Below are positions 1,159 through 63,548 of a DNA stretch of 64,000 nucleotides, piece after piece. Within the stretch, counting starts at the first letter, position 1, and every line of letters starts with the position of its first letter. A program made the translations under genes and the position numbers. Under the pieces are notes generated by a model that was not told where the DNA came from, did not search any database, and saw only the letters and a program-made list of their open reading frames with translations. This DNA is from an uncultured Gammaproteobacteria bacterium (lineage in GTDB: Bacteria; Patescibacteriota; Patescibacteriia; UBA9570; XYC2-FULL-38-9). The stretch is taken from assembly GCA_964344485.1 (NCBI GenBank), contig CAYFNF010000001.1, positions 122,115-186,114 of the forward strand, in the 5' to 3' direction.

Positions 1159-3351
1159 TCACTCCCACTCAACCAATTCTTCAGGTAAGTCGTCTAGAAA
1201 GCGAGAAGGTGGGTTCACTTGTACATTACCGTACCGCATGCGTTGAGCTGCAAAGATGATCATGACACGTTCAATTGCTCGGGTAATAGCAACGTAGCAG
1301 AGCCGCCGCTCTTCTTCCATCTCTTGCGGATTCGTGAGTGAACGAGAGTGCGGGAACAACCCTTCTTCCATCCCCACAATGAATACCGTCGGGAACTCGA
1401 GACCTTTGGCAGCGTGTACGGTCATGAGCTTTACTGCATTATCTGACTCTTCAACTTCATCTTGATCCATGACTAATGCAACGTCTTCAAGGAACGCTTG
1501 CAGTCCTTCTTCACCGCGGAGGTTTTGAAATTTCTGTGTTACGGTTTTGAGCTCTTGCACGTTCTCCCAGCGAGCTTCAGCTTGTTCCTTAGTATCACAA
1601 CTGGTAAAGAGCCAGTCTTTGTAATCGATCTCTTTTAAAATACTGTCTAGCAGTTCTGTTGGATTCAGGTCCGGGAGTTGCTTTGAAAGTGATTTTAAGA
1701 CATCAGCAAATTGATAGAAGCTCTCTAAGCGTGCATTCTGGATGTCCGGAATAGCATGGTCTGCAGATTCAATCACAGTGAAGCTGCGTTCACGTGCGAA
1801 CTGTTCAATTTTATACCATGTACGATTTCCGATCCCTCGTGTTGGGATATTTACTATTCGTTCTAAAGATACCCAGTCACTTGGGTTAAAGATTGAACGC
1901 ATGAAGGCGAGTACATCTTTGATCTCACGACGCTCGTAGAATTTAATGCCACCGATAATTTTATACGGAATTCCGAACTTCAGAAATGACTCTTCAATTG
2001 CGCGTGACTGTGCATTGGTGCGGTAGAGTACTACGTACTGTGAGAAATCTATCTCTCGTTTTTTAGCTTCAACTTCTTGTCGTAGCTCCCCGTCTTCTTT
2101 CTGTTGAGTGAACTGCCGCATACCCATCACGCGATCCAAGATACTCTCTCCCTCTTGAATGACTTCATCCTCGGGGTCTGGTTGCGCATCTTCATCCACG
2201 TACTCTATTTCATCCGTTGTACCCGCGGTGTCCCACCCAACGATCTGTTCTACAATATATCGCCCTTCCGCTTCTTCATTCGCTACTTCTTTAATGCGGA
2301 TTTTTTCACCTGCCTGGTTTTCAGTCCAGAGCTTCTTCTTTTTTTGATTCTTATTCTTTTCAATGACCTGATTGGATGCATCCAGGATTGTCTGTGTGGA
2401 TCGATAGTTCTGTTCTAGAAATACTGTGGTTGCGTCTGCATAATCTTTTTCAAAGTCTAGAATATTTCGGATGTCAGCCATGCGCCAGCTGTAGATGGAC
2501 TGTGCATCATCTCCAACCACACAGATGTTTTTATGTTTGTCTGCTAGCAGCGTTACTAAACGATACTGTGCTTTATTCGTGTCTTGATACTCGTCTACTA
2601 AGATATGCTCCCAGAGCTTCTGATATTTCTTCAAAATGTCCGGATACTTTTCTAAAAGTTCGACTGTCTTCATGATTAAGTCATCGAAGTCGAGCGCATT
2701 GTGTTCTTTTAGGGATTTCTGATATTCAGGGTAGACATTGGCTGCAATCTCACTGATTGGGTCGTCCACAAGCTCCTGATACTGTTCCGGAGTGATCAGC
2801 AAGTTCTTGCTGTTAGAGATCTTCCAGTGAATGGCATTGGGTGCTATCTGTTTGGTATCAATACCTTGTTCTTTCATGAGCTTCTTAACCAACACCTGTT
2901 GCTCAGAGTCATCGTAGATAACGAAGTTGGATTTATATCCCAGCGCTTCAATCTCTTTTCGCAGTAAGCGCGAGCAGATGGAGTGAAATGTTCCCATGTG
3001 CGGGAAGTGTTGCTGTTTCTTTCCCAGCAGTGCGACCATACGCTCCTGCATATTGCGCGCAGCTTTGTTTGTAAAGGTTACGGCGAGTATATTCCATGGT
3101 TTTACCCCTTGCTCCGCTATCAAGTACGCGATGCGATGGATAAGAGTACGGGTTTTACCAGAGCCTGCTCCAGCCAAAATCAACACCGGCCCTTTTACCG
3201 TGGTGACAGCCTCTTGTTGCTTATCGTTCAATTCACGCAGGATCAAATCACCAGCGGTCACTGTGGTGTTTCTCTTTACGGGCTTCTTTTTAGGGCGTGA
3301 TGCAGTGTTCTTGGCCTTCCTTTTGGTTGCAGGCTTCTTTTTTTTCGGCAT
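1159..3351 (-). CDS. pcrA: ATP-dependent DNA helicase, UvrD/PcrA/Rep family, with a roughly 35-aa lysine-rich N-terminal extension
   Basis: Walker A LILAGAGSGKTRTL. Also VTFTNKAARNMQER, VDEYQDTN and a QNYRST-like motif. 730 aa. Confidence 0.9.
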   Translation of the reverse strand: MPKKKKPATKRKAKNTASRPKKKPVKRNTTVTAGDLILRELNDKQQEAVTTVKGPVLILAGAGSGKTRTLIHRIAYLIAEQGVKPWNILAVTFTNKAARNMQERMVALLGKKQQHFPHMGTFHSICSRLLRKEIEALGYKSNFVIYDDSEQQVLVKKLMKEQGIDTKQIAPNAIHWKISNSKNLLITPEQYQELVDDPISEIAANVYPEYQKSLKEHNALDFDDLIMKTVELLEKYPDILKKYQKLWEHILVDEYQDTNKAQYRLVTLLADKHKNICVVGDDAQSIYSWRMADIRNILDFEKDYADATTVFLEQNYRSTQTILDASNQVIEKNKNQKKKKLWTENQAGEKIRIKEVANEEAEGRYIVEQIVGWDTAGTTDEIEYVDEDAQPDPEDEVIQEGESILDRVMGMRQFTQQKEDGELRQEVEAKKREIDFSQYVVLYRTNAQSRAIEESFLKFGIPYKIIGGIKFYERREIKDVLAFMRSIFNPSDWVSLERIVNIPTRGIGNRTWYKIEQFARERSFTVIESADHAIPDIQNARLESFYQFADVLKSLSKQLPDLNPTELLDSILKEIDYKDWLFTSCDTKEQAEARWENVQELKTVTQKFQNLRGEEGLQAFLEDVALVMDQDEVEESDNAVKLMTVHAAKGLEFPTVFIVGMEEGLFPHSRSLTNPQEMEEERRLCYVAITRAIERVMIIFAAQRMRYGNVQVNPPSRFLDDLPEELVEWE

Positions 3352-3498: not shown

Positions 3499-3942
3499 AT
3501 GAGGACCATGAACCTGGCTGTCGACCCCAGGATCCAGAATGCGTTCATGCGTGCGGCCATGCACGCGGTTCGGCATCACGTGATCCAGGCCACGAGCGCG
3601 CACAAGGAGGCGTTCGACACGCCCGCGTTCCAGGGCACGCTGATGCGCGTGGTGTTGAGTCCGACGAACCGGAAGTCCGAGCGGCGGATCGACCGGTGGA
3701 GCATGACGTTCTGGATCGAGGACGTCGGGCAGAGCCGTGACCAGATCATCGAGTCGGTCGTGGTAGCGCTCGAGAACATGGACATGTTCTGCTACGTGGG
3801 CAAGCGGGGTGTCGCCAACCCCGTTCCCACGGCGCGGGTGATGTTCATGGCCAAGATCCCGGCACGCGAGGGCTTCCAGCTCTTCCAGCGCACCTGCGAG
3901 TGCGGCGCCGTGCGTACGGCATCGGATCCGGGCCTGCTCTAG
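3499..3942 (+). CDS. Hypothetical protein, 147 aa, high GC (compositionally foreign)
   Basis: Starts MRTMNLAVD with a strong SD. GC is much higher than the flanks. No recognisable motif. Confidence 0.55.
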   Translation: MRTMNLAVDPRIQNAFMRAAMHAVRHHVIQATSAHKEAFDTPAFQGTLMRVVLSPTNRKSERRIDRWSMTFWIEDVGQSRDQIIESVVVALENMDMFCYVGKRGVANPVPTARVMFMAKIPAREGFQLFQRTCECGAVRTASDPGLL

Positions 3943-4999: not shown

Positions 5000-5629
5000 A
5001 TGTTCTTTCACATTCTGCAGGCGTTCGTGGAGCTGGTCCGTGATGTGATCCGCAAACCCGTGGAGTTCATTCACGTAGAGATGAACTGGTCGGTGCTGAA
5101 CCCGCTGGTGTGGCTGCCGCATACTCTGTCTCCGGACATGACCATCTCTTCGCTGAGCGAGCTGGACGCGCAAGCGCTGGTGGATCTCGGGTACGAAGCA
5201 GTGATCATTGACTACGACGGCGTGATTGTGGACTACCACACCGAGGAGCCACCCGCGCCCGTGGTCGTGGAAGCGCTGCAGCGGTTGTCCAAGCACTTGC
5301 GCGTGCGAATTCTGTCGAACCGCCGCGGGAAGCTGCTGCAGTCGCTGCACGATGCGCTCCCTCAGTTCCCGGTAGTCCGCTCGTGTAAGATGAAGCCACA
5401 CAAGGAACCGTACCTGACCGCAGCAAAGACCTTGGGCGTAGAGATCACCAAGACGGTGTTGATCGAGGACCGGCTCGCCACTGGGATCGCGGGAGGTAAC
5501 CGCGTGGGGATGTACACGGTGTGGATGCATCCATCGCTGGGCCGTGATCGAGAGCCTTGGAACGTCTGGCTCTATCGCTTGGTTGAGGAGAAGCTACTCT
5601 CCTTGTACAACACGCTGCGTTTGACCTGA
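5000..5629 (+). CDS. HAD-superfamily IIIA phosphatase, YqeG-like; high GC
   Basis: Motifs VIIDYDGVI (DxD nucleophile) and CKMKPHKEPYLTAAKTLGVE...VLIEDRLATGIAGGNRVGMYTVW. GGAGG is 8 nt upstream of the ATG. Confidence 0.7.
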   Translation: MFFHILQAFVELVRDVIRKPVEFIHVEMNWSVLNPLVWLPHTLSPDMTISSLSELDAQALVDLGYEAVIIDYDGVIVDYHTEEPPAPVVVEALQRLSKHLRVRILSNRRGKLLQSLHDALPQFPVVRSCKMKPHKEPYLTAAKTLGVEITKTVLIEDRLATGIAGGNRVGMYTVWMHPSLGRDREPWNVWLYRLVEEKLLSLYNTLRLT

Positions 5630-27754: not shown

Positions 27755-27778
27755 AAAAAAAATGAGGACAGGGTCCTC
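27755..27778 (-). terminator. Rho-independent terminator of the high-GC LOG-family gene
   Basis: On the minus strand: GAGGAC-CCT-GTCCTC hairpin followed by T8, overlapping the stop codon by 1 nt. Confidence 0.7.
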
Positions 27779-28545
27779 TAGACGCTAGCGCTTCGCAACT
27801 GCCCGGTCAGGGCACGTTCCGCCTTGGCGCGGTTGCCGTTGGCGTCCAGCACATGGGCGACCGCTTCGGCGGGCTCGTCCGTGAACAGGACATGGAACTG
27901 CTGCTTGCTCAGGGTCTGCCAGTCGCACATGTGCGACAGGTCGGCTCTCACGCACTTCCAGTGATCCTTGCCCAGCAGAGCCAGGGGGATGCGTCGCCCG
28001 ATCTCCTGACCGAGCTGCAGCTTCTGGATGAACATGAACAGCTCGAGTCGGGTCCCGATGCCTCCGGGCGGGAAGATTCCTCCGTCCGCCAGGATCTCCA
28101 TGATCTCGATTCGGGTGCCGAAGAGCTGGTTCGCGATGTAGATGTCCACTGCGGACGGGTCCATCATCTCGAACACTTGTCCATCGGCTTGCCGGATGAC
28201 GATCCGCACTCCGATCAGAGGCTGGGTGTGCGCGTGGACACGGTGCGTCCTGAAGGAGGTCTGCACGATCTCGGGCAGGCCGGGGCAGTGTCCGGAGATC
28301 TGAGCCGCTCCTTGCTCGCCGAGCAGGCGACCGGTCTCGACCATGTGGTCAGCGTACTGCGCATGCAGGCGCGGGGCCTCATCAGCCGAACGGGCGGATC
28401 CGAAGATGCCGATGACCGGCCCGATGTGTGGCTTGAGGAAGTCCGCGTATGCTCGCGTCGTCATGCCGAACTGGTAGACACCTTGCTGCAGCAGCGCCAG
28501 TTGAGCGACCGCTCGTGGGTCGCTGCTCCAAAACTCTCTCGTCAT
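27778..28545 (-). CDS. LOG-family protein (TIGR00730 Rossmann-fold nucleotide-binding; cytokinin riboside 5'-monophosphate phosphoribohydrolase-like); high GC
   Basis: PGGIGTRLELF matches the LOG PGGxGTxxE motif. Start MTREFW has GGAGGAG 8 nt upstream. The + strand ORF 27853..28605 is its antisense shadow. Confidence 0.65.
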   Translation of the reverse strand: MTREFWSSDPRAVAQLALLQQGVYQFGMTTRAYADFLKPHIGPVIGIFGSARSADEAPRLHAQYADHMVETGRLLGEQGAAQISGHCPGLPEIVQTSFRTHRVHAHTQPLIGVRIVIRQADGQVFEMMDPSAVDIYIANQLFGTRIEIMEILADGGIFPPGGIGTRLELFMFIQKLQLGQEIGRRIPLALLGKDHWKCVRADLSHMCDWQTLSKQQFHVLFTDEPAEAVAHVLDANGNRAKAERALTGQLRSASV

Positions 28546-28701
28546 GTTAGGTGCTCCTCCGTCGATTCTGCGACGAAACGATTTCTGGTTATCAACGTGG
28601 GTTGATGCCGATACTGTATGCTCTTTTCTGCTACTTGTCAAAGCGTGAGTGAATGCATGAAATGTGGTATACTACCACGCGTAAATAGTAGTAATAGTTA
28701 T

Positions 28702-33118: not shown

Positions 33119-33319
33119 GATCTGTTCTTTATATCCAAGAACTGGAACTGTCACGAGGAGAGAGTGACAATCCAACAACAGGGACGACCCAGAGACGCCT
33201 GCTAAGTATTAAATAAGACGCCGAATTTTTTGCAGCCTTATTTAGTAGCTAGCAGCCGTCCTGGACAAGTCGGGAATCGCCTACGGGCGTGAACCGCACG
33301 GTCTGCATCGGAGGTACTC

Positions 33320-33505
33320 ATGACCCTGACCCTGTCCCTGTCCGCCCTCGCCCTCACCGCCCTGCTGCTCTCGGTCCGCTCGCGCCGCATCGCGCGCGAG
33401 ACCGCCGCCGCGGAGTTCGAGGCCCGCTACGCCGTCGTCTACGACCGCCCGGTCACGATCGACACCGAGCGCTGGCTGACCGCCGGCATGGCCACGAGCA
33501 AGTAG
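33320..33505 (+). CDS. Small hypothetical membrane protein (61 aa), high GC
   Basis: GGAGG is 7 nt upstream of the ATG. N-terminal TM helix LTLSLSALALTALLLSV. The alternative overlapping ORF 33289..33633 is Arg-rich and less likely. Confidence 0.4.
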   Translation: MTLTLSLSALALTALLLSVRSRRIARETAAAEFEARYAVVYDRPVTIDTERWLTAGMATSK

Positions 33506-33622
33506 GAGCGCCTGAGGCGCAGAGGAGCGCCCGGCCAGGGTTCATCGCGACGCATACGCTCGCGACCTGGCCGCTCCTTCCCTGCAGTGTTACCCAACAC
33601 TTCAGAGAAGGAGTACAAAAAG

Positions 33623-33645
33623 ACCGCGTTTAAAGCGCGGTTTTA
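33623..33645. terminator. Bidirectional rho-independent terminator
   Basis: accgcg-tttaaag-cgcggt flanked by A5 and T4. Confidence 0.55.
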
Positions 33646-51130: not shown

Positions 51131-51499
51131 ATGTACTGTATGCTGGACCGACAGTTGATTCAGCAGTTCGTAGAGAAGGGTTTCCGGTGGACCGTGGTGG
51201 TCACCCAGGACAGCGGTGGTCTCGAACCCGAGGCCGTGGCTGCGGTGGCCAACGCCAGGCGCATGGGATGCGCGGTCGGGTGCGTATTCGTGGGTGTCTC
51301 CGCGGAGGCGCTCGAAGCCGAGACTCGGGACTTCGGTCTGGCGCTCGCGCGCGCGTGCGACGAGGCCGAGCCGGTGGTCGAAGACAGCATCACCATGAGT
51401 GAGTTCGGCACGGACCGCAAGTTCACCCTGGTGATCTTCCCGCCGATCAATGCCGAGATCCAGGCCTGTTCGGATCGCGAGCCCGTAGAGCGCCCCTGA
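51131..51499 (+). CDS. Hypothetical protein, 122 aa, high GC (compositionally foreign)
   Basis: AAGGGAG SD upstream of the ATG at 51131 (or 51140). GC far above the flanks. No recognisable motif. Confidence 0.45.
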   Translation: MYCMLDRQLIQQFVEKGFRWTVVVTQDSGGLEPEAVAAVANARRMGCAVGCVFVGVSAEALEAETRDFGLALARACDEAEPVVEDSITMSEFGTDRKFTLVIFPPINAEIQACSDREPVERP

Positions 51500-55671: not shown

Positions 55672-55980
55672 ATGAAATTAGATAAAAAAGCCATAGATCA
55701 TCTAAAAAAGTTGGCGAAGATGGACTTAACCACTGAAGAAGAAGAGGTCCTTCCGTCCCAGCTTTCAGATATCTTGGATTTTGTTGAAAAGCTAAGTGAA
55801 GTGGATACTGATAATGTTCCTCCAACGAGTCAGGTCACTGGACTGGAAGATATCATGCGCGCAGATGAAGCGACCTATACATTTGAAAAATCTGACATGA
55901 CGAAGTGTATGCCGGACACTGATGAGCAAGGTCATTTGCGTGTGCACGCAGTATTTACTGATGACAGCCCTAGCCATTAA
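55672..55980 (+). CDS. gatC: Aspartyl/glutamyl-tRNA amidotransferase subunit C
   Basis: 103 aa: MKLDKKAIDHLKKLAKMDLTTEEEE...DTDNVPPTSQV is the GatC pattern. Directly upstream of gatA. Confidence 0.8.
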   Translation: MKLDKKAIDHLKKLAKMDLTTEEEEVLPSQLSDILDFVEKLSEVDTDNVPPTSQVTGLEDIMRADEATYTFEKSDMTKCMPDTDEQGHLRVHAVFTDDSPSH

Positions 55981-55984
55981 TACT

Positions 55985-57433
55985 ATGGAGATTTCGAGCA
56001 TACGAGAGTTACGAAAACAATTGGATGATAAAAAAGTATCGGTCAAAGAAGTAGTAGACCATTACTTGAAGCGCATCACACAGACCAATAGTGATCTGAA
56101 TAGTTTTATTACTGTAGATACCAAGCATGCACGTGAGCATGCGGAACATGCACAAGCAGAAATCGATAACAATAATCAGAGCCCGTTGACTGGTATTCCA
56201 TATGCGGTGAAAGACATTTTCTGCACGCGCGGGTTGCGTACCACCGCAGGATCTAGAATTTTAAATGAGTACGTCCCTCCGTATTCAGCTACTTCAGTTG
56301 AGAGATGTAAAGACGCGGTGTTGTTAGGAAAGACAAACTGTGATGAATTTGCGCAAGGAGCATCGAATGAATACTCTGCGTTTGGTCCTGCAAAAAATCC
56401 GTATGATCTAGAGCGTGTTCCTGGTGGATCTTCTGGAGGTTCAGCAGTATCAGTAGCATCTGGGCAAGCGCTGTTTGCGTTAGGTACGGACACCGGTGGA
56501 TCCACACGTCTGCCAGCTGGGTTTTGTAACGTAGTAGGCTTTAAGCCGACCTACGGCCGTATTTCTCGATATGGAGTCATCTCCATGGCGTCATCTTTTG
56601 ACACTGTGAGCATATTCTCACGTTCTGTCGCAGATAGTGCATATGTACTTCGAGAGCTTGCTGGTGAGGATCCACTCGATTCAACAACTCCTCGTGTTCC
56701 AGTGGACGACTATGTGCATGAGATAGAGCAATCTATACAAGGACTACGCATCGGTGTACCAAAAGAGGCGATCGAATTAGAAGGGCTGGACCCGCACGTT
56801 CGTACGATCCATGACGAAACAGTCAAATTATTGAGCGGTTTAGGCGCTGAGGTCGTAGAAGTATCGCTTCCGCACATCATGAAATACGGGTTAGCCACAT
56901 ACTATATTCTCATTCCTTCTGAAGTGAGTTCGAATATGGCACGATTTGATGGTATGCAGTACGGAGAGCCTGCTGCAGGAGCTGAAACTCTAGAGCAAGC
57001 GTTTGTGCGCACTCGTCAGCTTGGATTTGGTCCTGAGGTACGACGCCGTGTCATGACTGGCACGTTTTGTTTGTCCGCCGGGTATGTGGATGCGTACTAT
57101 AAGAAAGCGCAGAAAGTGCGAACACTGATTCGGGAGGACTTTGCAGAAGCGTTTCGAGTGGTTGATTTACTATTCATGCCGACCTCTTCAACACCTCCGT
57201 TCAAGATAGGAGCACAGGACCAGGATCCAATTGCAATGTACTTAGCTGATATCTTTATGGTGCCTGCAACTCTTGCAGGAGTGCCCGCAATATCTCTGCC
57301 AGCAGGCGCAGTAGGTAATTTGCCTATCGGTATGCAGCTCATTGGCCCGCAGTTTAAGGATTCTGTGGTTCTCAGAGCTGCGCATGCATTAGAGCAGGAG
57401 ATTCCGGCCCCATCATGCTCATTAGCAGTGTAA
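55985..57433 (+). CDS. gatA: Glutamyl-tRNA(Gln) amidotransferase subunit A (amidase signature family)
   Basis: Amidase signature GGSSGGSAVSVASG. 482 aa from MEISSIREL. Confidence 0.9.
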   Translation: MEISSIRELRKQLDDKKVSVKEVVDHYLKRITQTNSDLNSFITVDTKHAREHAEHAQAEIDNNNQSPLTGIPYAVKDIFCTRGLRTTAGSRILNEYVPPYSATSVERCKDAVLLGKTNCDEFAQGASNEYSAFGPAKNPYDLERVPGGSSGGSAVSVASGQALFALGTDTGGSTRLPAGFCNVVGFKPTYGRISRYGVISMASSFDTVSIFSRSVADSAYVLRELAGEDPLDSTTPRVPVDDYVHEIEQSIQGLRIGVPKEAIELEGLDPHVRTIHDETVKLLSGLGAEVVEVSLPHIMKYGLATYYILIPSEVSSNMARFDGMQYGEPAAGAETLEQAFVRTRQLGFGPEVRRRVMTGTFCLSAGYVDAYYKKAQKVRTLIREDFAEAFRVVDLLFMPTSSTPPFKIGAQDQDPIAMYLADIFMVPATLAGVPAISLPAGAVGNLPIGMQLIGPQFKDSVVLRAAHALEQEIPAPSCSLAV

Positions 57434-58495: not shown

Positions 58496-58764
58496 CATAA
58501 TGTATGCAATGGTGTGTCCTTGAAAAAAGCTCTTAAAAATGGTCTTACAGCTTGTGAGTGATGCAGTAATTACGTAAATATGCACTTATGCACAGAATAG
58601 TTGACAAACATGAGAGACTGCATTACTCTTACTGCTAATTATGAAACACGCAATCAGAACAACTCAGGAATGTGAACAGTATTACAGCCTTAGCTGGTAT
58701 GCTTTCTTTTTTAGCTTTGAGCGCCAGAAGGTTGATGTGTAATTAATTTCTATTTCTTTCACGA

Positions 58765-58796
58765 GCAGCCTTCTGGAACGAAGGCTGCTTTATTTT
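58765..58796 (+). terminator. Strong hairpin plus U-tract upstream of the high-GC GCS2-like gene (terminator, insulator or attenuator)
   Basis: gcagccttc-tggaac-gaaggctgc (9-bp stem) followed by TTTATTTT. No gene lies between ndk's own terminator and this element. Confidence 0.5.
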
Positions 58797-58907
58797 GTGG
58801 CTGATGTAGGCAGCGGTATATACTGCTCTCTACATTGGCTCCGAAATCAAGACGATTCGCAAGCCATACCATCACATCGACAGCAGCAGACGAGGAATAA
58901 GGAGGAG

Positions 58908-59777
58908 ATGAAACCGACTGCACTAATCCCGTATGAGGGAGTCGATGGGCCCGCCGCGTTCTTCGCTGCCTTGGAGCAGCGTTTCGAAAGAAACAGAAGG
59001 AACGGATACGGCACCGCGTTCGGCGCGGAGATCGAAGGACACCTGCACGTGGGGGACGACCCCATGCCCGCCCTGCGGGGACCTGAATTCCTTCAGCTCC
59101 GTGCGGAGCAATGCTCACCCGAGCGTCGCGCTCACAACGGATCGGATTCACTGTTCGCACCTGAGGTGCACCTCGGAAGGATCGAAGCACTCACGGTACC
59201 AGCACCGGACGTCGACGGCATGATGGCCGAAGTCACGCTCCGACTGCAGGAGATCGACGAGACTGCTGCCCGCATGGGTCTGAACTTCCGCTGTGATCCG
59301 ATCATCCCGATTCCGGATGACCATGAAACCGTGGTCCTCCCTGAACTGCTCGACTCCGAGCGCTACCAAGCACTGTCACCCCAAGCCGCTCGCGCGGCAC
59401 TCTCGGTCGCTGCACTGCAGTTCCAGAGGGGATGCCAGTCCATGGATCAAGCGCTCGGAATGTACGAAGCAGTCCGGCGTGCGTTGCCGGACCTACGTTT
59501 CATGGGAGATCTCACGGATGGTCGCCGACAGCGGCTCTACGAACTCTGGGTCGACCCAGAGATGGCTAGACCGCCGGTACTCCGGAATCGCATGCAAGTC
59601 TACGCGCACGCGAGACGCTACGGCTGGGTGAACGCGCCCAAGGGGTGGTGGTCCGACGTGAGGATCAACATGATGAACGGGACCGTGGAACTACGGTCAC
59701 CCGACGCATCGCGTGACCTCGCGCACATTCGGACTCTGGGCGAAGCCTTCGCTCACATCACCGCACCCTACGCGTAA
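58908..59777 (+). CDS. GCS2/YbdK-like carboxylate-amine ligase (short form, 289 aa); high GC
   Basis: AGGAGG precedes the ATG. TAFGAEIEGHLHVGD resembles YbdK FTLGIELEMQVV. GTVELRSPDAS resembles YbdK GTVEVRVMDTP. Confidence 0.5.
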   Translation: MKPTALIPYEGVDGPAAFFAALEQRFERNRRNGYGTAFGAEIEGHLHVGDDPMPALRGPEFLQLRAEQCSPERRAHNGSDSLFAPEVHLGRIEALTVPAPDVDGMMAEVTLRLQEIDETAARMGLNFRCDPIIPIPDDHETVVLPELLDSERYQALSPQAARAALSVAALQFQRGCQSMDQALGMYEAVRRALPDLRFMGDLTDGRRQRLYELWVDPEMARPPVLRNRMQVYAHARRYGWVNAPKGWWSDVRINMMNGTVELRSPDASRDLAHIRTLGEAFAHITAPYA

Positions 59778-59783
59778 ACTCCG

Positions 59784-59818
59784 AGGGGTTCTGGCCCAGC
59801 CCCTCAACCACTTTTTTC
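59784..59818 (+). terminator. Rho-independent terminator after the GCS2-like gene
   Basis: gagggg-ttctggcccag-cccctc followed by T6. Confidence 0.6.
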
Positions 59819-60025
59819 TAACTAATTCGTTTACATATAGTTGTACAACAGCACACTACGGTTATGAACAGTCAATTACAGTCTCACAGTTCAATAGAGA
59901 GTACCAATCGGTCATTCTGCGCCCGACAGTCTTTCTCATGGCAATACTATTACTACTATTCCCTAGTTTTTGGAAGGCTGTTTAGTGTGCCATAGAGATT
60001 TTCTTTATTACGTATCGCGATAAAA

Positions 60026-60052
60026 CCCTTCCAAGAACTGGAAGGGTTTTTT
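60026..60052 (+). promoter_or_regulatory. Conserved leader hairpin plus U-tract (copy 1) upstream of 460-aa paralog A
   Basis: cccttcca-agaac-tggaaggg plus T6, followed by the conserved block tcttgagaacg...cgacaacc. It lies about 135 nt before the ATG. Confidence 0.5.
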
Positions 60053-60187
60053 CTTGTCTACAGATTTTTCAGCGCGATTAGTTCATCGCAATAAAAGATC
60101 TTGAGATAAGGATTCACGAGTCTTGAGAACGCTCTTCACAAACAAAGCGACAACAACCAACAACCACAGCAACACACGAGGTACAAG

Positions 60188-61570
60188 ATGAACATTCTGG
60201 ACACGCACATCGAGCAGATGGAGTCCCTGGACCTGGGCGGGTTGGAGACCCGCAACATCCAGATGTCCCTGAGTCCGTTCGGGATTCTTCCCGGATACCG
60301 TACGGTCTACCCCCAGGTGGTCGTGGAAGCGCTGGCGAGCATCTTCACGGAGTTCAACGCAGCGTTCGCGCCCCTGATCGAGGCCAACCGCGAGTGGGAG
60401 ACCGACTACCAGTACTGCAACAACGGTGCTGGCCCGGTGAACTGGATCGTGCAGGTGGACATGGTCGGTCTGCCGCAACCGTTCCTGGAGCAGGCTGCGA
60501 GCATGCCCATGCCTGCCGTACGAGCGCTCCTGCGCAACCGCATCTTCGAGATGGAGAATTCCTGGGCCATGTACCAGTTCCTGGAACGGGCCTTCTCTCG
60601 AGATGGACGCGATAGCTTCTACAAGCAGCGAGTTCGTGCTCTACTCGACGCGCTGCGAGCGAAGTTCGGGCGTCCGATCGCCCTACTCGCGGTCACGCAC
60701 GAGAAGTGGCACGCCATGCGCGCGATCGAGTTCGGCAAGCAAGAGGGCGAGCCGCTCACGGACGAAGAGGTGCGCGAGCTGACCGGCTTCGATCGGCTCT
60801 TCGGCCCCGACGACTTCCGCGCGTACCTGGCTGCGAACCACGGCAAGTGCGACTACCTGCTCTACGCGCGCACCAGCGACCCGATCGAGAAGCTCAAGAA
60901 GCCGAACATCGCAGTCGACCACCCGCTGCTCGCGGACCCGGAGATGCGACGCCTGATCAAGGCGCACGCGATCACGTTCAACGTGGACAATCCGGAGTGG
61001 CCGACCGGCAGTTCGCGGCGGATCAACGACACCAAGTGGTACATGCCGCCCATGGGCATGGCGTACCCGGTCCGTAGAGATCAGGACTACCTGCATGCAG
61101 CGTTTCTGGAACACCTGTTCCGCGGCCGCGCGTACGATCAGTACGACGATGAGCGTCTGAGCTCGGACTTCGAAGCGTACCTGTGCCTGCAAGGAGTCGA
61201 CATCGCAGCGGTTCATGCGGGCCAGGTGACGATGCGGGCCAAACCCGCTCAGGGCGCGTTCGGATGCTATGGACACGTGGTCGGTCCACTGACCAGGGGC
61301 AAGATCCGCTCCAAGATCCGACGGAACCTGCAGAAGCGCGGACCGTACATGCTGCAGCCTGAGATGCGTACCCCCATGGTCCAGGACCAGGCAAGTGGTG
61401 CTCGGTATCTGTACATCGATCGGAACTTCTTCGGAATGCTGGACGGTGCACCCGTCTTCCTCGGAGGATTCCGTTCCATGATGCCGGTGGATGCGCACGA
61501 AGCGCACAAGGGTCGCAATCACGGGAACCACCACACGGTACACGCCGAGGTGATCTCGGAAGAGATGTAG
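60188..61570 (+). CDS. Uncharacterised 460-aa protein, paralog A; high GC
   Basis: Conserved blocks shared with paralog B: AANREWETDYQYCNNG, PIALLAVTHEKWHA, GPYMLQPEM, FLGGFRSMMPV-AHEA-K-RNHG. Confidence 0.6.
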   Translation: MNILDTHIEQMESLDLGGLETRNIQMSLSPFGILPGYRTVYPQVVVEALASIFTEFNAAFAPLIEANREWETDYQYCNNGAGPVNWIVQVDMVGLPQPFLEQAASMPMPAVRALLRNRIFEMENSWAMYQFLERAFSRDGRDSFYKQRVRALLDALRAKFGRPIALLAVTHEKWHAMRAIEFGKQEGEPLTDEEVRELTGFDRLFGPDDFRAYLAANHGKCDYLLYARTSDPIEKLKKPNIAVDHPLLADPEMRRLIKAHAITFNVDNPEWPTGSSRRINDTKWYMPPMGMAYPVRRDQDYLHAAFLEHLFRGRAYDQYDDERLSSDFEAYLCLQGVDIAAVHAGQVTMRAKPAQGAFGCYGHVVGPLTRGKIRSKIRRNLQKRGPYMLQPEMRTPMVQDQASGARYLYIDRNFFGMLDGAPVFLGGFRSMMPVDAHEAHKGRNHGNHHTVHAEVISEEM

Positions 61571-61728
61571 CACGCCGCACTCTCCAAGCGAGAAGTCCGG
61601 CTTTTTTTTGCCAACAATAGCATTTTCTTCATGAAAAAGCCTTTATTTTTAAACCGAAATATGATGTAGCGCAATAAACGCTTTTTTTCTAGCATTTTCG
61701 CCATTTACTATGTTTTTTTTGCTAATAC

Positions 61729-61756
61729 TTGACTTTTTTTCAAAAACCTTTATGAT
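61729..61756 (+). promoter_or_regulatory. Sigma70-like promoter (TTGACT - 16 nt - TATGAT) about 370 nt upstream of paralog B
   Basis: TTGACT at 61729-61734 and TATGAT at 61751-61756. Implies a long 5' leader. Confidence 0.45.
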
Positions 61757-61938
61757 ATGTTAAATTCAACCTAGGAAAAATGGACTTACAACGCCTTTCA
61801 ACAATGCATCAAAAACGAATTAGCTGGTTTTTTAGCCCTCTAATTCTCATTGAGGTGATTTATTTTTTCGGAATTATTCACCGATTGGAAGGCCGCTTGA
61901 CGTGTACTAGATAACAAACAACTATCGTTTCACAGCAA

Positions 61939-61963
61939 CCCTTCCAATCCTGGAAGGGTTTTT
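61939..61963 (+). promoter_or_regulatory. Conserved leader hairpin plus U-tract (copy 2) upstream of 460-aa paralog B
   Basis: cccttcca-atcc-tggaaggg plus T5, followed by cttgtct and tcttgagaacg blocks shared with copy 1. Confidence 0.5.
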
Positions 61964-62125
61964 GCTTGTCTTGAGATGTTTCCATACGACACTACAGCCG
62001 TATTGAAACATCTTAAGAGGAGTGCAAACAACTCTTGAGAACGGTTCATTGACAGCAAAACCGACAACCTCACACCCGCCTACTACACCCGCCCATCTGT
62101 TCCCTCCTGCTCATCAGAGTGAAAG

Positions 62126-63508
62126 ATGCCTACCTTCGACACGCACTTCGACACTACCCCCTCTCTCTCGCTGGGTTCGGTGCTCGACCTCGCCATCCAG
62201 TCCACCATGGGCCCGTTCCAGGTGCTGCCTGGCTTCCACGCCACCTACCCGCCGGTCGTGCTGCAGGCGCTCGCCAACCTCTACCTCGAGTACAACGCGG
62301 CCTTCTCCCCGCTGATCGCGGCCAACCGCGAGTGGGAGACCGACTACCAGTACTGCAACAACGGCCACGGTCCGACCAACTTCGGTGTCCAGATCGACAT
62401 GGTCGGCCTGCCCCAGAGCTTCCTGGACGCGGTCGCAGACCTGCCCGAGCCCGTGGTGCGAGAGCTCCTGCGCTACAAGATCTTCGAGATCGAGAACAGC
62501 CTGGCCATGTACCAGCTCCTGATGCACCTGTTCCCGCGCACCGGAAGTCCGCACACCTTCTTCGACACCCAGTTCCGGGCAGTCCTGGAAGACCTGCGTC
62601 GCCGTCACGGCAAGCCGATCGCGCTGCTCGCGGTCACGCAGGAGAAGTGGCACGCCATACGCCAGACCGAGTTCGGCCTCACCGGCGACCAGCCGCTCTC
62701 CAGCGACGAGGTCCGACGCCTCACCGGCTTCGACCACTTCCTCGGTCCGGACGACTTCCACGCGCACCTCGCGGCGAACCACGGCGACTGCCAGTTCCTG
62801 CTCTACGCCCGCACTAGCCACCCGGTGGCCAAGCTCCGGAAGCCGGCCACGGCTGTGGAACACCCCCTGCTCAGCTTCCCCGAGATGCGGCGCATGATCA
62901 AGGCCCTGGCCATCACGTACAACGTGGATGATCCGGACTGGTCAACTGGAGACCCTCGCCACATCAACGATAGCAAGGGGTACATGCCGCCTATGCGCAT
63001 GGCGTTCCCGCTCGACAGCGAGACCGACTACCTCACGCTGGGGCTCTGCAAGCACCTCTCCCGCGGTCAGCCCTGCCAGACGTACACCGGGCAGCACTTC
63101 ACCGACAGCTTCGTCCAGTTCCTGCGCTCGCACGGCGTGGACCCGGCTGCGGTGGCCAGCGGAGAGATCATGCTGCGGGCCAAGCCCACGATGTGCTCCT
63201 ACGGCTGCTACGGTCACGTGTCTGGCGCGGTCCCGAACTCCAAGTTCCGCGGAGAAGTCCGCCGCAACATGCGCCTGCGTGGCCCGTACATGCTCCAGCC
63301 TGAGATGAAGACACCCAAGATCGTCAACGCCGACGATGGGCAGATGTACACGTACATCGATCGAGTCTTCTTCGGGATGGTCAACGGCGAGCCGTCGTTC
63401 CTCGGTGGGTTCCGGTCCATGATGCCGGTGCACGCCCACGAGGCGCTCAAGCGCCGCAACCACGGGAGCAACGAAACCGTCTGGGCCGAGGTCCGCTCGG
63501 AGTCCTAG
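62126..63508 (+). CDS. Uncharacterised 460-aa protein, paralog B; high GC
   Basis: Same length as paralog A, roughly 55-60% identical to it by eye, with the same conserved blocks. Confidence 0.6.
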   Translation: MPTFDTHFDTTPSLSLGSVLDLAIQSTMGPFQVLPGFHATYPPVVLQALANLYLEYNAAFSPLIAANREWETDYQYCNNGHGPTNFGVQIDMVGLPQSFLDAVADLPEPVVRELLRYKIFEIENSLAMYQLLMHLFPRTGSPHTFFDTQFRAVLEDLRRRHGKPIALLAVTQEKWHAIRQTEFGLTGDQPLSSDEVRRLTGFDHFLGPDDFHAHLAANHGDCQFLLYARTSHPVAKLRKPATAVEHPLLSFPEMRRMIKALAITYNVDDPDWSTGDPRHINDSKGYMPPMRMAFPLDSETDYLTLGLCKHLSRGQPCQTYTGQHFTDSFVQFLRSHGVDPAAVASGEIMLRAKPTMCSYGCYGHVSGAVPNSKFRGEVRRNMRLRGPYMLQPEMKTPKIVNADDGQMYTYIDRVFFGMVNGEPSFLGGFRSMMPVHAHEALKRRNHGSNETVWAEVRSES

Positions 63509-63513
63509 AACCA

Positions 63514-63548
63514 CCGCGCCTCATCAGCGAGGTCGCGGCCCTTTTTTT
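63514..63548 (+). terminator. Rho-independent terminator after paralog B
   Basis: An imperfect GC-rich hairpin (ccgcgcctc...gaggtcgcgg) followed by T7. Confidence 0.5.

Follow-up and report, generated by a model that had tools for sequence, protein, structure and literature searches.

Predicted leader-peptide transcription attenuators upstream of ligase-fold genes in a Patescibacteria genome and across the phylum

What is the role of the long AT-rich non-coding gaps that lie before two paralogous genes in the genome of an uncultured member of the Patescibacteria? The stretch of DNA analysed here, which we call the window, comprises 64,000 nucleotides (nt) of contig CAYFNF010000001.1, and contains three successive plus-strand genes of 61-65% GC: gene 0 (58908-59777), encoding a protein of 289 amino acids (aa), and two 460-aa paralogs, A (60188-61570) and B (62126-63508). 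The gaps, to which a first-pass annotation of the window had drawn attention, measure 410 nt (59778-60187) and 555 nt (61571-62125), and have about 40% GC between coding sequences (CDSs) of 62-65% GC. That annotation suggested an attenuator or a riboswitch. The attenuator is now well supported; the riboswitch is not, since there is no aptamer-like domain and no Rfam match at the gathering threshold, and the region upstream of the terminator is predicted to be coding.

We propose that each of the three ligase genes (58908, 60188 and 62126) would be its own unit under a ribosome-mediated leader-peptide transcription attenuator. Transcription would begin at a sigma-70-type promoter just 5′ of a leader open reading frame (ORF) of 33-44 codons. 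A ribosome reaching the leader stop codon would pass over or sit beside the 5′ segment of an antiterminator (segment 2); the terminator hairpin and its U-tract would then form, and the transcript would end about 110-170 nt before the gene. A ribosome stalled at Trp, Phe or Tyr codons 15-40 nt 5′ of segment 2 would leave that segment free to pair with the 5′ arm and loop of the terminator, so creating the antiterminator, and RNA polymerase would read into the ligase gene. The signal would be a shortage of charged tRNA-Trp, tRNA-Phe and tRNA-Tyr, making this a multivalent 'aromatic' attenuator. That the architecture is that of a ribosome-dependent attenuator we regard as very probable. The full statement that includes the sensing of aromatic aminoacyl-tRNA is one that we favour with some reserve.

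All three units are laid out in the same way, with a promoter, a mostly leaderless ORF of 33-44 codons carrying a Trp/Phe/Tyr cluster, an antiterminator segment and an intrinsic terminator. In unit A the promoter-like site (59830-59857; TTTACA-16-CACACT, with a weak -10 element) ends 6 nt 5′ of the ATG of the leader ORF (59864-59995; 43 codons, MNSQLQSHSSIESTNRSFCARQSFSWQYYYYYSLVFGRLFSVP). The aromatic cluster of the leader reads SWQYYYYYS, the Trp codon lying at 59939-59941 and the five Tyr codons at 59945-59959. It is followed by segment 2 (59965-59977; AGTTTTTGGAAGG), which pairs with 60027-60039, that is with the terminator 5′ arm and loop; the helix of AGUUUUUGGAAGG with CCUUCCAAGAACU has a calculated energy of -23.4 kcal/mol (z -5.9), the antiterminator energies being computed by folding without the terminator 3′ arm. 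The intrinsic terminator (60022-60052) has the core cccttcca-AGAAC-tggaaggg (60026-60046) within a 12-bp stem (60022-60050), followed by T6.

Unit B has the promoter TTGACT-16-TATGAT (61729-61756), lying 370 nt 5′ of the start of gene B as the first-pass annotation had it. The leader ORF (61780-61914; 44 codons, MDLQRLSTMHQKRISWFFSPLILIEVIYFFGIIHRLEGRLTCTR) is preceded by an AGGA Shine-Dalgarno (SD) sequence with a promoter-to-ATG spacing of 23 nt, whereas units 0 and A fit the leaderless geometry of the family described below. Segment 2 (61882-61892; CGATTGGAAGG) pairs with 61940-61949, the helix of CGAUUGGAAGG with CCUUCCAAUC having an energy of -20.2 kcal/mol. The terminator (61937-61965) is built on cccttcca-ATCC-tggaaggg (61939-61958), extended to 61937-61960 and followed by T5. 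The same 8-bp hairpin with its T-tract, followed by CTTGTCT, is thus present in both leaders, as had been described.

The third unit, before 58908, had been overlooked, together with the leader ORF of unit B and the antiterminator strand TTGGAAGG, which is the decisive feature. In A and B TTGGAAGG sits 45-50 nt 5′ of each hairpin and is complementary to the terminator 5′ arm and loop. Unit 0 is of the same design with unrelated sequence. Its promoter-like site (58601-58629; TTGACA-17-TACTCT) has a weak -10 element (3/6) and ends 11 nt 5′ of the ATG of a 33-codon leader ORF (58641-58742; MKHAIRTTQECEQYYSLSWYAFFFSFERQKVDV). Segment 2 (58723-58735; GCCAGAAGGTTGA) pairs with 58766-58776, bringing together CCAGAAGGUUG and CAGCCUUCUGG; the RNA from segment 2 through the terminator 5′ arm folds at -20.7 kcal/mol (duplex shuffle p ≤ 0.005). 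The terminator (58763-58798) consists of an 11-bp stem (hairpin 58763-58790) and a T-rich tail, TATTTTGT.

The antiterminator helices of the three leaders are thus 10-13 bp in length and reach the terminator 5′ arm and loop, and the terminator stems have energies of -15 to -19 kcal/mol, with a U-tract of T5-T6 in A and B and the T-rich tail in unit 0. Segment 2 falls within the last 5-9 codons of the small ORF in all three, with the cluster of aromatic codons just before it: YYYYY in A, FFF-F in unit 0 and WFF..YFF in B. In a relaxed scan that gave 42 terminator-like hairpins on both strands of the window, an antiterminator together with an ORF was found only at these three. Each of the three genes has its own terminator directly 3′ of its stop codon (that of A at 61574-61609 and that of B at 63514-63545), so these are three separate transcription units and not one operon. 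No promoter-like site was found between terminator and gene in any of the three units, and the reading of the small ORF as an independent gene, with a second promoter past the terminator, was rejected for want of such a promoter.

The first-pass annotation also reported a 15-codon mini-ORF. This frame, MAILLLLFPSFWKAV, does exist at 59938-59985, and a small ORF does matter here, but the frame chosen was the wrong one. As a leader peptide MAILLLLFPSFWKAV was rejected: its Trp codon lies inside segment 2, it lacks the promoter geometry, and it is unlike the rest of the family. In leader A only the 43-codon frame at 59864-59995 (..FSWQYYYYYSLVFGRLFSVP) fits the geometry of the family, with the promoter 6 nt upstream, the Trp codon 26 nt before the antiterminator segment and the stop codon after it.

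The leader segments of A and B are 48-62% identical, against 67% for the CDSs, and only islands are conserved, which coincide with the helices. The helix pairs of A and B were read by hand, the MAFFT alignment placing the 5′ arm out of register. The extension of the antiterminator helix into the terminator loop differs in a compensatory manner, being GUUUUU:AAGAAC in A and GAUU:AAUC in B. The conserved TTGGAAGGC is read in different frames, as G-R-L in A and L-E-G in B, and is therefore conserved as RNA and not as peptide. Could the likeness of A and B nevertheless be no more than a remnant of tandem duplication, with hairpins that are ordinary terminators of upstream transcription and no regulatory function? 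A and B are tandem paralogs with 57% aa identity, their leaders are overall less conserved than the CDSs, and the region has no more terminator-like hairpins than shuffles would lead one to expect (5 against 6.4). It is the combination of features, not the hairpins as such, that exceeds chance. Gene 0 and gene A are already terminated right past their own stop codons, and conservation is limited to helices and includes compensatory changes. Within the window the similarity of A and B could stem from tandem duplication; the functional evidence comes from other loci.

The 460-aa protein has hundreds of homologs, almost all in metagenome-assembled genomes of Patescibacteria; none is more than 60% identical and none has a Pfam domain. 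The leaders therefore cannot be compared at the level of sequence, and we compared their architecture, scanning the regions upstream of homologs in about 50 loci. Close relatives suitable for covariation analysis were not found, the best protein match being 60% identical and the contigs of the closest homologs ending 63-115 nt 5′ of the gene. The first-pass annotation had made the fate of its proposal depend on conservation at homologous loci: in the sequence, which has no close relatives, there is none, while the architecture is conserved. Most loci that have a strong hairpin with a T-tract also have an upstream strand able to pair with its 5′ arm and loop, an ATG ORF and a Trp-bearing peptide. 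The ORFs are of about 20-45 codons and end 0-23 nt past the antiterminator strand, with one Trp in an aromatic or hydrophobic cluster; examples of the peptides are MNNLLFYYFVFGFWFTDLKSRLRF, ..AWFSYFFAFNN.., ..AFYFWFFGSF.. and MNINYSNNYWFFFHPLQREAVL.

Antiterminator complementarity at a shuffle p ≤ 0.005 was found for 29/41 leader terminators and for 27/345 controls, which were the other terminators in the same loci and in the window (Fisher 6e-19, Mann-Whitney 2e-16). Several of the 27 complementary 'controls' are in fact the same device before fused, 850-970 aa versions of the gene. When upstream regions were swapped between loci, a terminator's own upstream region was the best of 41 partners in 15 cases and among the top three in 28, which may be regarded as amounting to covariation across loci. 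In all 33 of 33 loci an ATG ORF of at least 17 codons ends between -12 and +30 nt from segment 2, compared with a mean of 6.4 and a maximum of 14 in shuffles. When a strict combined criterion was applied to the gene strand, 25/55 loci passed it; applied to the opposite strand, it selected 0/55. The parts, their geometry and energetics, and this phylum-wide recurrence with complementarity that is specific to each locus, are direct results of the computation.

The same device also precedes non-homologous genes: gene 0, both in the window and in a syntenic relative (locus L065, gene order ligA-gatC-gatA-RR-ndk, RR being a response regulator), a 478-aa gene of L065, and the fused forms of 850-970 aa. 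Upstream of its gene-0 homolog, L065 has TTGACA-17-TATATT, the ORF MNTHIRTNSFFFSFPGFSSAGVNFFVS, an antiterminator and a weak terminator, and the FFFSF motif is common to this leader and to leader 0 of the window. The non-homologous leader 0 and more than 30 leaders of unrelated sequence elsewhere thus share one architecture, and together the complementarity, ORF, swap and strand controls strongly disfavour an absence of regulatory function, which we consider extremely improbable.

Are the small ORFs translated? A sigma-70-like promoter scoring at least 8/12 was found for 28/32 leader ORFs (null 18%), and for 23 of the 28 the distance from the end of the -10 hexamer to the ATG is 6-13 nt, usually with no SD sequence. 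The short distance from -10 to ATG and the usual lack of an SD sequence make it probable that the ORFs are leaderless. Closely related pairs of leaders show coding signatures as well: in-frame 3-nt indels distinguish L008 from L047 and L022 from L038, and 6/8 of the differences between L015 and L052 are at third codon positions.

The composition of the peptides may point to what is sensed. Trp is present in 35/39, with W enriched 3.4-fold and F 2.2-fold, while D, E and P are depleted (D 0.19-fold, E 0.47-fold). The codons for F, W and Y make up 39-47% of those lying 18-30 nt 5′ of segment 2, and 0-3% of those beyond 60 nt. The peak at 18-30 nt is the position at which a stalled ribosome would leave the antiterminator strand free.

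For the sensing step the main alternative is arrest by the nascent peptide, in which the conserved Trp within its aromatic or hydrophobic stretch would halt the ribosome, by itself or once a small molecule is bound, and operate the same terminator/antiterminator switch. The single Trp is indeed the most conserved feature of the peptides, many leaders have no true codon runs, the hydrophobic and aromatic residues that flank the Trp resemble known arrest motifs, and the whole 18-45 aa peptide would still be in or near the exit tunnel at the stop codon. Yet no residue besides W is conserved, and anywhere from 8 to 28 residues separate W from the stop codon, whereas known arrest peptides need a fixed spacing to the peptidyl-transferase centre. 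The enrichment of aromatic codons follows the distance to the RNA segment and not that to the stop codon, the YYYYY of leader A and the FFF-F of leader 0 are classical codon runs, and TnaC and SpeFL work via Rho and not via intrinsic terminators. We consider peptide arrest unlikely, if worth keeping in mind. Two related candidates were rejected. Sensing of co-translational membrane insertion (SecM/MifM-like) would require the hydrophobic stretch to emerge from the tunnel before translation reaches the stop codon, for which the peptides are too short. UTP-sensitive pausing (pyrBI-like) does not fit because it is the identity of the aromatic amino acids that is conserved and not U-tracts, the Tyr codons of leader A being both TAC and TAT.

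The position-specific enrichment of W, F and Y would be left unexplained by a second alternative, a general sensor of translation status without amino-acid specificity that responds to starvation or to ribosome-directed antibiotics, of the erm, cat or vmlR type. Hydrophobic motifs such as IFVI do stall ribosomes in erm leaders, and a leader that is not translated would, if segment 2 were not strongly paired with the upstream ORF region, form the antiterminator by default. Leader A, where a strong hairpin encloses segment 2, would behave in the opposite way, defaulting to termination when untranslated. Leaderless initiation is condition-dependent (PMC9031893), which would suit such a sensor, while the regulated genes are not resistance determinants. 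We judge this reading to be distinctly unlikely.

Might the ORFs instead encode functional small proteins, either membrane peptides or substrates of the ligase akin to ribosomally synthesized and post-translationally modified peptides (RiPPs), with a leaky hairpin setting the ratio of peptide to enzyme? The order promoter, small ORF, hairpin and ATP-grasp enzyme is also that of a RiPP operon, and several of the peptides, such as those of L008 and L001, resemble single transmembrane helices. The complementarity between the 3′ end of the ORF and the terminator 5′ arm, specific to each locus, would then have no explanation. The C-termini of the peptides are unconserved, the conserved DNA there being read in different frames in A and B; Asp and Glu, needed for graspetide cross-links, are depleted 5-fold and 2-fold; and the same device stands before unrelated genes. 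The peptides do not have the conserved, enzyme-specific core with acceptor and donor residues that marks a graspetide-type precursor. The small-protein reading therefore appears to us quite improbable.

A long structured leader with alternative hairpins might also be a riboswitch or a protein-binding leader, in which a ligand or an RNA-binding protein would choose between terminator and antiterminator; the further conserved hairpins past the terminator, P2 and P3, have no assigned role and could be counted in its favour. No Rfam family was matched at its gathering threshold anywhere in the window, and at E ≤ 10 there were only sub-threshold matches to Phe_leader (RF01859) and noise. The former, against a gathering score of 55 bits, scored 35.5 and 29.3 bits on the minus strand, and 27.4 and 24.9 bits on the plus strand, where the terminator hairpin alone is matched. 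Membership of Phe_leader was rejected because these scores fall below 55 bits and the best matches (61931-62037 and 60017-60125, both minus strand) are on the strand that is not transcribed; they arise because the terminator and P2 read backwards mimic a long hairpin followed by a short one. We note that such near-matches are a trap for automated annotation. No conserved ligand- or tRNA-binding domain, of riboswitch or T-box kind, was found 5′ of the terminator, the upstream ORF sequence being unconserved across loci. No aptamer-like fold is conserved there; what recurs is the ORF with its promoter-ATG geometry. Control by a ligand or a protein is thus very improbable, and the element is a member of no Rfam family.

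Some observations weigh against the aromatic attenuator. Termination, read-through and translation of the ORF are all predicted from sequence, as are the signal and the direction in which the control works. The regulated genes do not appear to serve the biosynthesis or charging of aromatic amino acids, so that the physiological logic is unexplained. Many leaders have no run but only a single W, a single F and a single Y (e.g. MELRSQALFVWMIYLLKRGGLAAR); such single codons are weaker than those of the classical multi-codon leaders and fit a peptide motif equally well. The promoter of unit A is weak (its -10 is CACACT), and since leaders 0 and A lack an SD sequence their translation presupposes leaderless initiation. 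The stop codon of leaders A and B is 16-20 nt past the core of segment 2, so a terminating ribosome would abut the segment without covering it. About a third of the homologous loci yield no unit by the criteria used, and the one subgroup of leaders that can be aligned (L019, L021, L026, L035 and L050) has invariant helices and no covariation signal.

The leaders continue beyond the terminator. In all three units a long, near-perfect hairpin (P2), whose stem can reach about 23 bp, begins at the U-tract or directly past it, at 58804-58835 in unit 0, 60051-60112 in unit A (where it takes in CTTGTCT and the first CTTGAGA) and 61964-62023 in unit B. P2 is found in about half of the family, and the first 100 nt past the terminator have a median folding z of -2.5, compared with -0.2 for controls (p=5e-6). 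A conserved block follows in A (60121-60160; TCTTGAGAACG...CGACAAC) and in B (62033-62071; TCTTGAGAACG...CGACAACC). As the first-pass annotation had indicated, the block is common to both leaders, TCTTGAGAACG being present at 60121 and 62033 and nowhere else in the 64-kb window; its end, which had been placed 60-130 nt before the start codon, is actually at 28 nt in A and at about 57 nt in B. The block holds hairpin P3 (60130-60133 with 60146-60149 in A, 62042-62046 with 62059-62063 in B), which shows a compensatory C-G/G-C change inside the TCTTGAGAACG block. There are two CUUGAGA-like motifs in A and three in B, one of the latter being CUUAAGA; since G-U pairs make the motif complementary to itself, its copies could pair in more than one way. 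C/A-rich, G-poor tracts, apparently unstructured, separate the last hairpin from the SD sequence (60150-60187 and 62060-62125), with a GC skew of -0.25 to -0.34 around 61900-62300. Rho-loading sites, or CA-type translational enhancers, typically have this composition. Possible functions for P2, P3 and the C-rich tract are stabilisation of the mRNA, processing by RNase III, and protection from or exposure to Rho.

What is being regulated? On the basis of their folds the genes would encode acid-amine ligases of the ATP-grasp and glutamate-cysteine types: gene 0 is of the glutamate-cysteine-ligase (GCS2/YbdK) type, paralog A is ATP-grasp-like, and the best fold matches of the 460-aa enzyme are small-molecule ligases. 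The ligase gene is followed by one for an M20 peptidase in the window, at loci L001, L061 and L062, and likewise at 10/10 additional loci. From fold and gene context the units are therefore predicted to control a gamma-glutamyl-type ligation module. A search of the literature on the ligase/M20 pair gave nothing relevant.

The base composition of these genes is unusual. The GC content of third codon positions (GC3) is 0.69 in gene 0, 0.82 in A and 0.90 in B, against about 0.4 in neighbouring genes of the window. The excess is not confined to the window: over 28 loci the ligase gene has a GC3 higher than its M20 neighbour by a mean of 0.155, the difference being above 0.1 in 17/28 (Wilcoxon 1e-7). 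The closest relatives have 58-59% GC in the ligase gene and 38-42% in the M20 gene, and the gene-0 homolog of L065 has 60% GC in a background of 37-40%. The excess persists across 40-45% protein divergence, which argues against simple recent horizontal transfer. We put forward, as a tentative conjecture that we rather doubt in its full extent, a phylum-wide 'aromatic ribulon' of Patescibacteria. In this the leaderless ORFs would sense Trp, Phe and Tyr supplied to these symbionts by their host and switch on the gamma-glutamyl-type ligases and the adjacent M20 peptidase by intrinsic-terminator attenuation, and the GC3-rich dialect confined to the ligase CDSs would serve translation during starvation and not reflect recent transfer.

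The three genes are not the only GC-rich ones in the window. The background is about 44% GC, and the neighbours of the three genes (gatA at 55922-57433, a response regulator and ndk) are typical of Patescibacteria. Nine sharply bounded islands of 59-64% GC stand out from it, each a single ORF with boundaries at start and stop codons: 1-271, 3499-3942, 5000-5629, 27778-28641 (minus strand), about 33289-33633, about 51131-51499, 58908-59777, 60188-61570 and 62126-63508. They are flanked by AT-rich DNA that has promoters and terminators of its own, and two of the non-ligase islands encode an HAD hydrolase and a LOG-family (Lysine_decarbox) protein. Attenuators were found only at the three ligase genes among the nine.

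Further observations concern the distribution of the device and of the genes. At 8610-9070 of L065 two tandem attenuator units, with leaders MQYINSTIISFILVYVLKKERGFLHG and MQSHNYPVIILNLIVIPYTAAMRM, lie before the unrelated GC-rich 478-aa gene, which was considered as a homolog of the 460-aa family and rejected, not being homologous. L004 has an Ile-rich leader, MYQKNTTIISIIIETSEGREFLA, at 3217-3343. These leaders suggest that several amino-acid classes of attenuator are used by these genomes. In L019 (2468-5320), L021 (2750-5305), L026 (2417-5305) and L035 (2387-5305) the ligase forms the C-terminal half of a larger protein, of 850-970 aa, whose N-terminal half has no Pfam match, and the attenuator precedes the fusion, with leaders such as MKINYSTNHFWFHFYPLNGEVVAVLNS. 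Gene 0 was rejected as a homolog of this N-terminal half, to which it has no similarity. Only four homologs of gene 0 could be detected in 5.8 billion proteins, and one of these is identical. The exact proteins of paralog A and gene 0 were not located on any contig; an identical paralog A protein was probably missed by the exact look-up because its start had been called differently.

A scan of metagenomes with the hairpin pattern gave 77 matches, all generic terminators and none with the CTTGTCT or CTTGAGAA blocks. Two unrelated metagenome contigs of 40-42% GC, L093 (760-784, minus strand) and L111 (995-1019, minus strand), have the identical CCCTTCCA-N-TGGAAGGG terminator with TTGGAAGG upstream, which in L093 is at the end of a 12-codon ORF (MRLFFRRRWKEK). 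These may be independent attenuators using the same helix.

Classical attenuation needs tight coupling of transcription and translation, and has been described mainly in Proteobacteria and Actinobacteria. Most Patescibacteria have not been cultured; amino-acid biosynthesis is absent from them, and little of their regulation has been characterised. We found no report of leader-peptide attenuation in Patescibacteria or the Candidate Phyla Radiation (CPR) in the searchable literature, so that, as far as our search could find, this would be the first case of classical attenuation in the phylum. The family is new; the class of mechanism is itself textbook, so no new principle is involved. The apparent aromatic aminoacyl-tRNA sensor provides a physiological handle on a phylum-wide ligase-M20 pair that has neither Pfam family nor annotation, and points to a role for the pair in the response to amino-acid shortage, for example in scavenging or in a gamma-glutamyl-type pathway. 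The signature can be searched for (TTGACA-17-TAnnnT, 6-13 nt, ATG, an ORF of 20-45 codons, antiterminator and terminator), and could be used to map a CPR regulon.

How do these units compare with known systems? The classical leader-peptide attenuators are trpL, pheL, hisL, leuL, thrL and the multivalent ilvL of Escherichia coli. In common with these the units described here have a short leader ORF with codons for the putatively sensed amino acids, antiterminator and intrinsic terminator hairpins that are mutually exclusive, and regulatory codons placed so that a stalled ribosome would free the antiterminator strand. Leader 0 (..AFFFSF..) is similar to pheL, and joint sensing of W, F and Y would parallel that of Ile, Leu and Val by the ilv leader. 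They differ in occurring in a Patescibacteria-type genome, and in having longer leader ORFs (typically 20-45 codons against 14-32) that are mostly leaderless. Many members have a single Trp with scattered Phe and Tyr in place of a run, the predicted targets are acid-amine ligases and not biosynthetic or tRNA-charging genes, and a further 110-250 nt of structured 5′ untranslated region (P2 and P3) follows the terminator. Leader-peptide attenuators have also been predicted in Actinobacteria (PMC1262725, PMC3082878).

The mycobacterial 'Cys ribulon' consists of leaderless, polycysteine short-ORF attenuators (bioRxiv 10.1101/834739). It resembles the present family in that the first cistron is a leaderless sensory short ORF, at which a ribosome stalled at one type of amino acid would remodel the downstream RNA, and in that several independent units per genome share one signal. 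The mycobacterial units unmask a ribosome-binding site and so act on translation, whereas here there is an intrinsic terminator with a U-tract; the amino acid is Cys there and would be Trp, Phe and Tyr here, and the mycobacterial targets are genes of cysteine metabolism. TnaC, which responds to free Trp, and SpeFL, which responds to ornithine, likewise have a short upstream ORF with critical Trp or aromatic residues, at which stalling turns on downstream transcription. In those peptides the arrest motif and its spacing are fixed, and the ribosome, halted at the stop codon or beside it, blocks Rho; the units described here have variable spacing, intrinsic terminators and an antiterminator helix.

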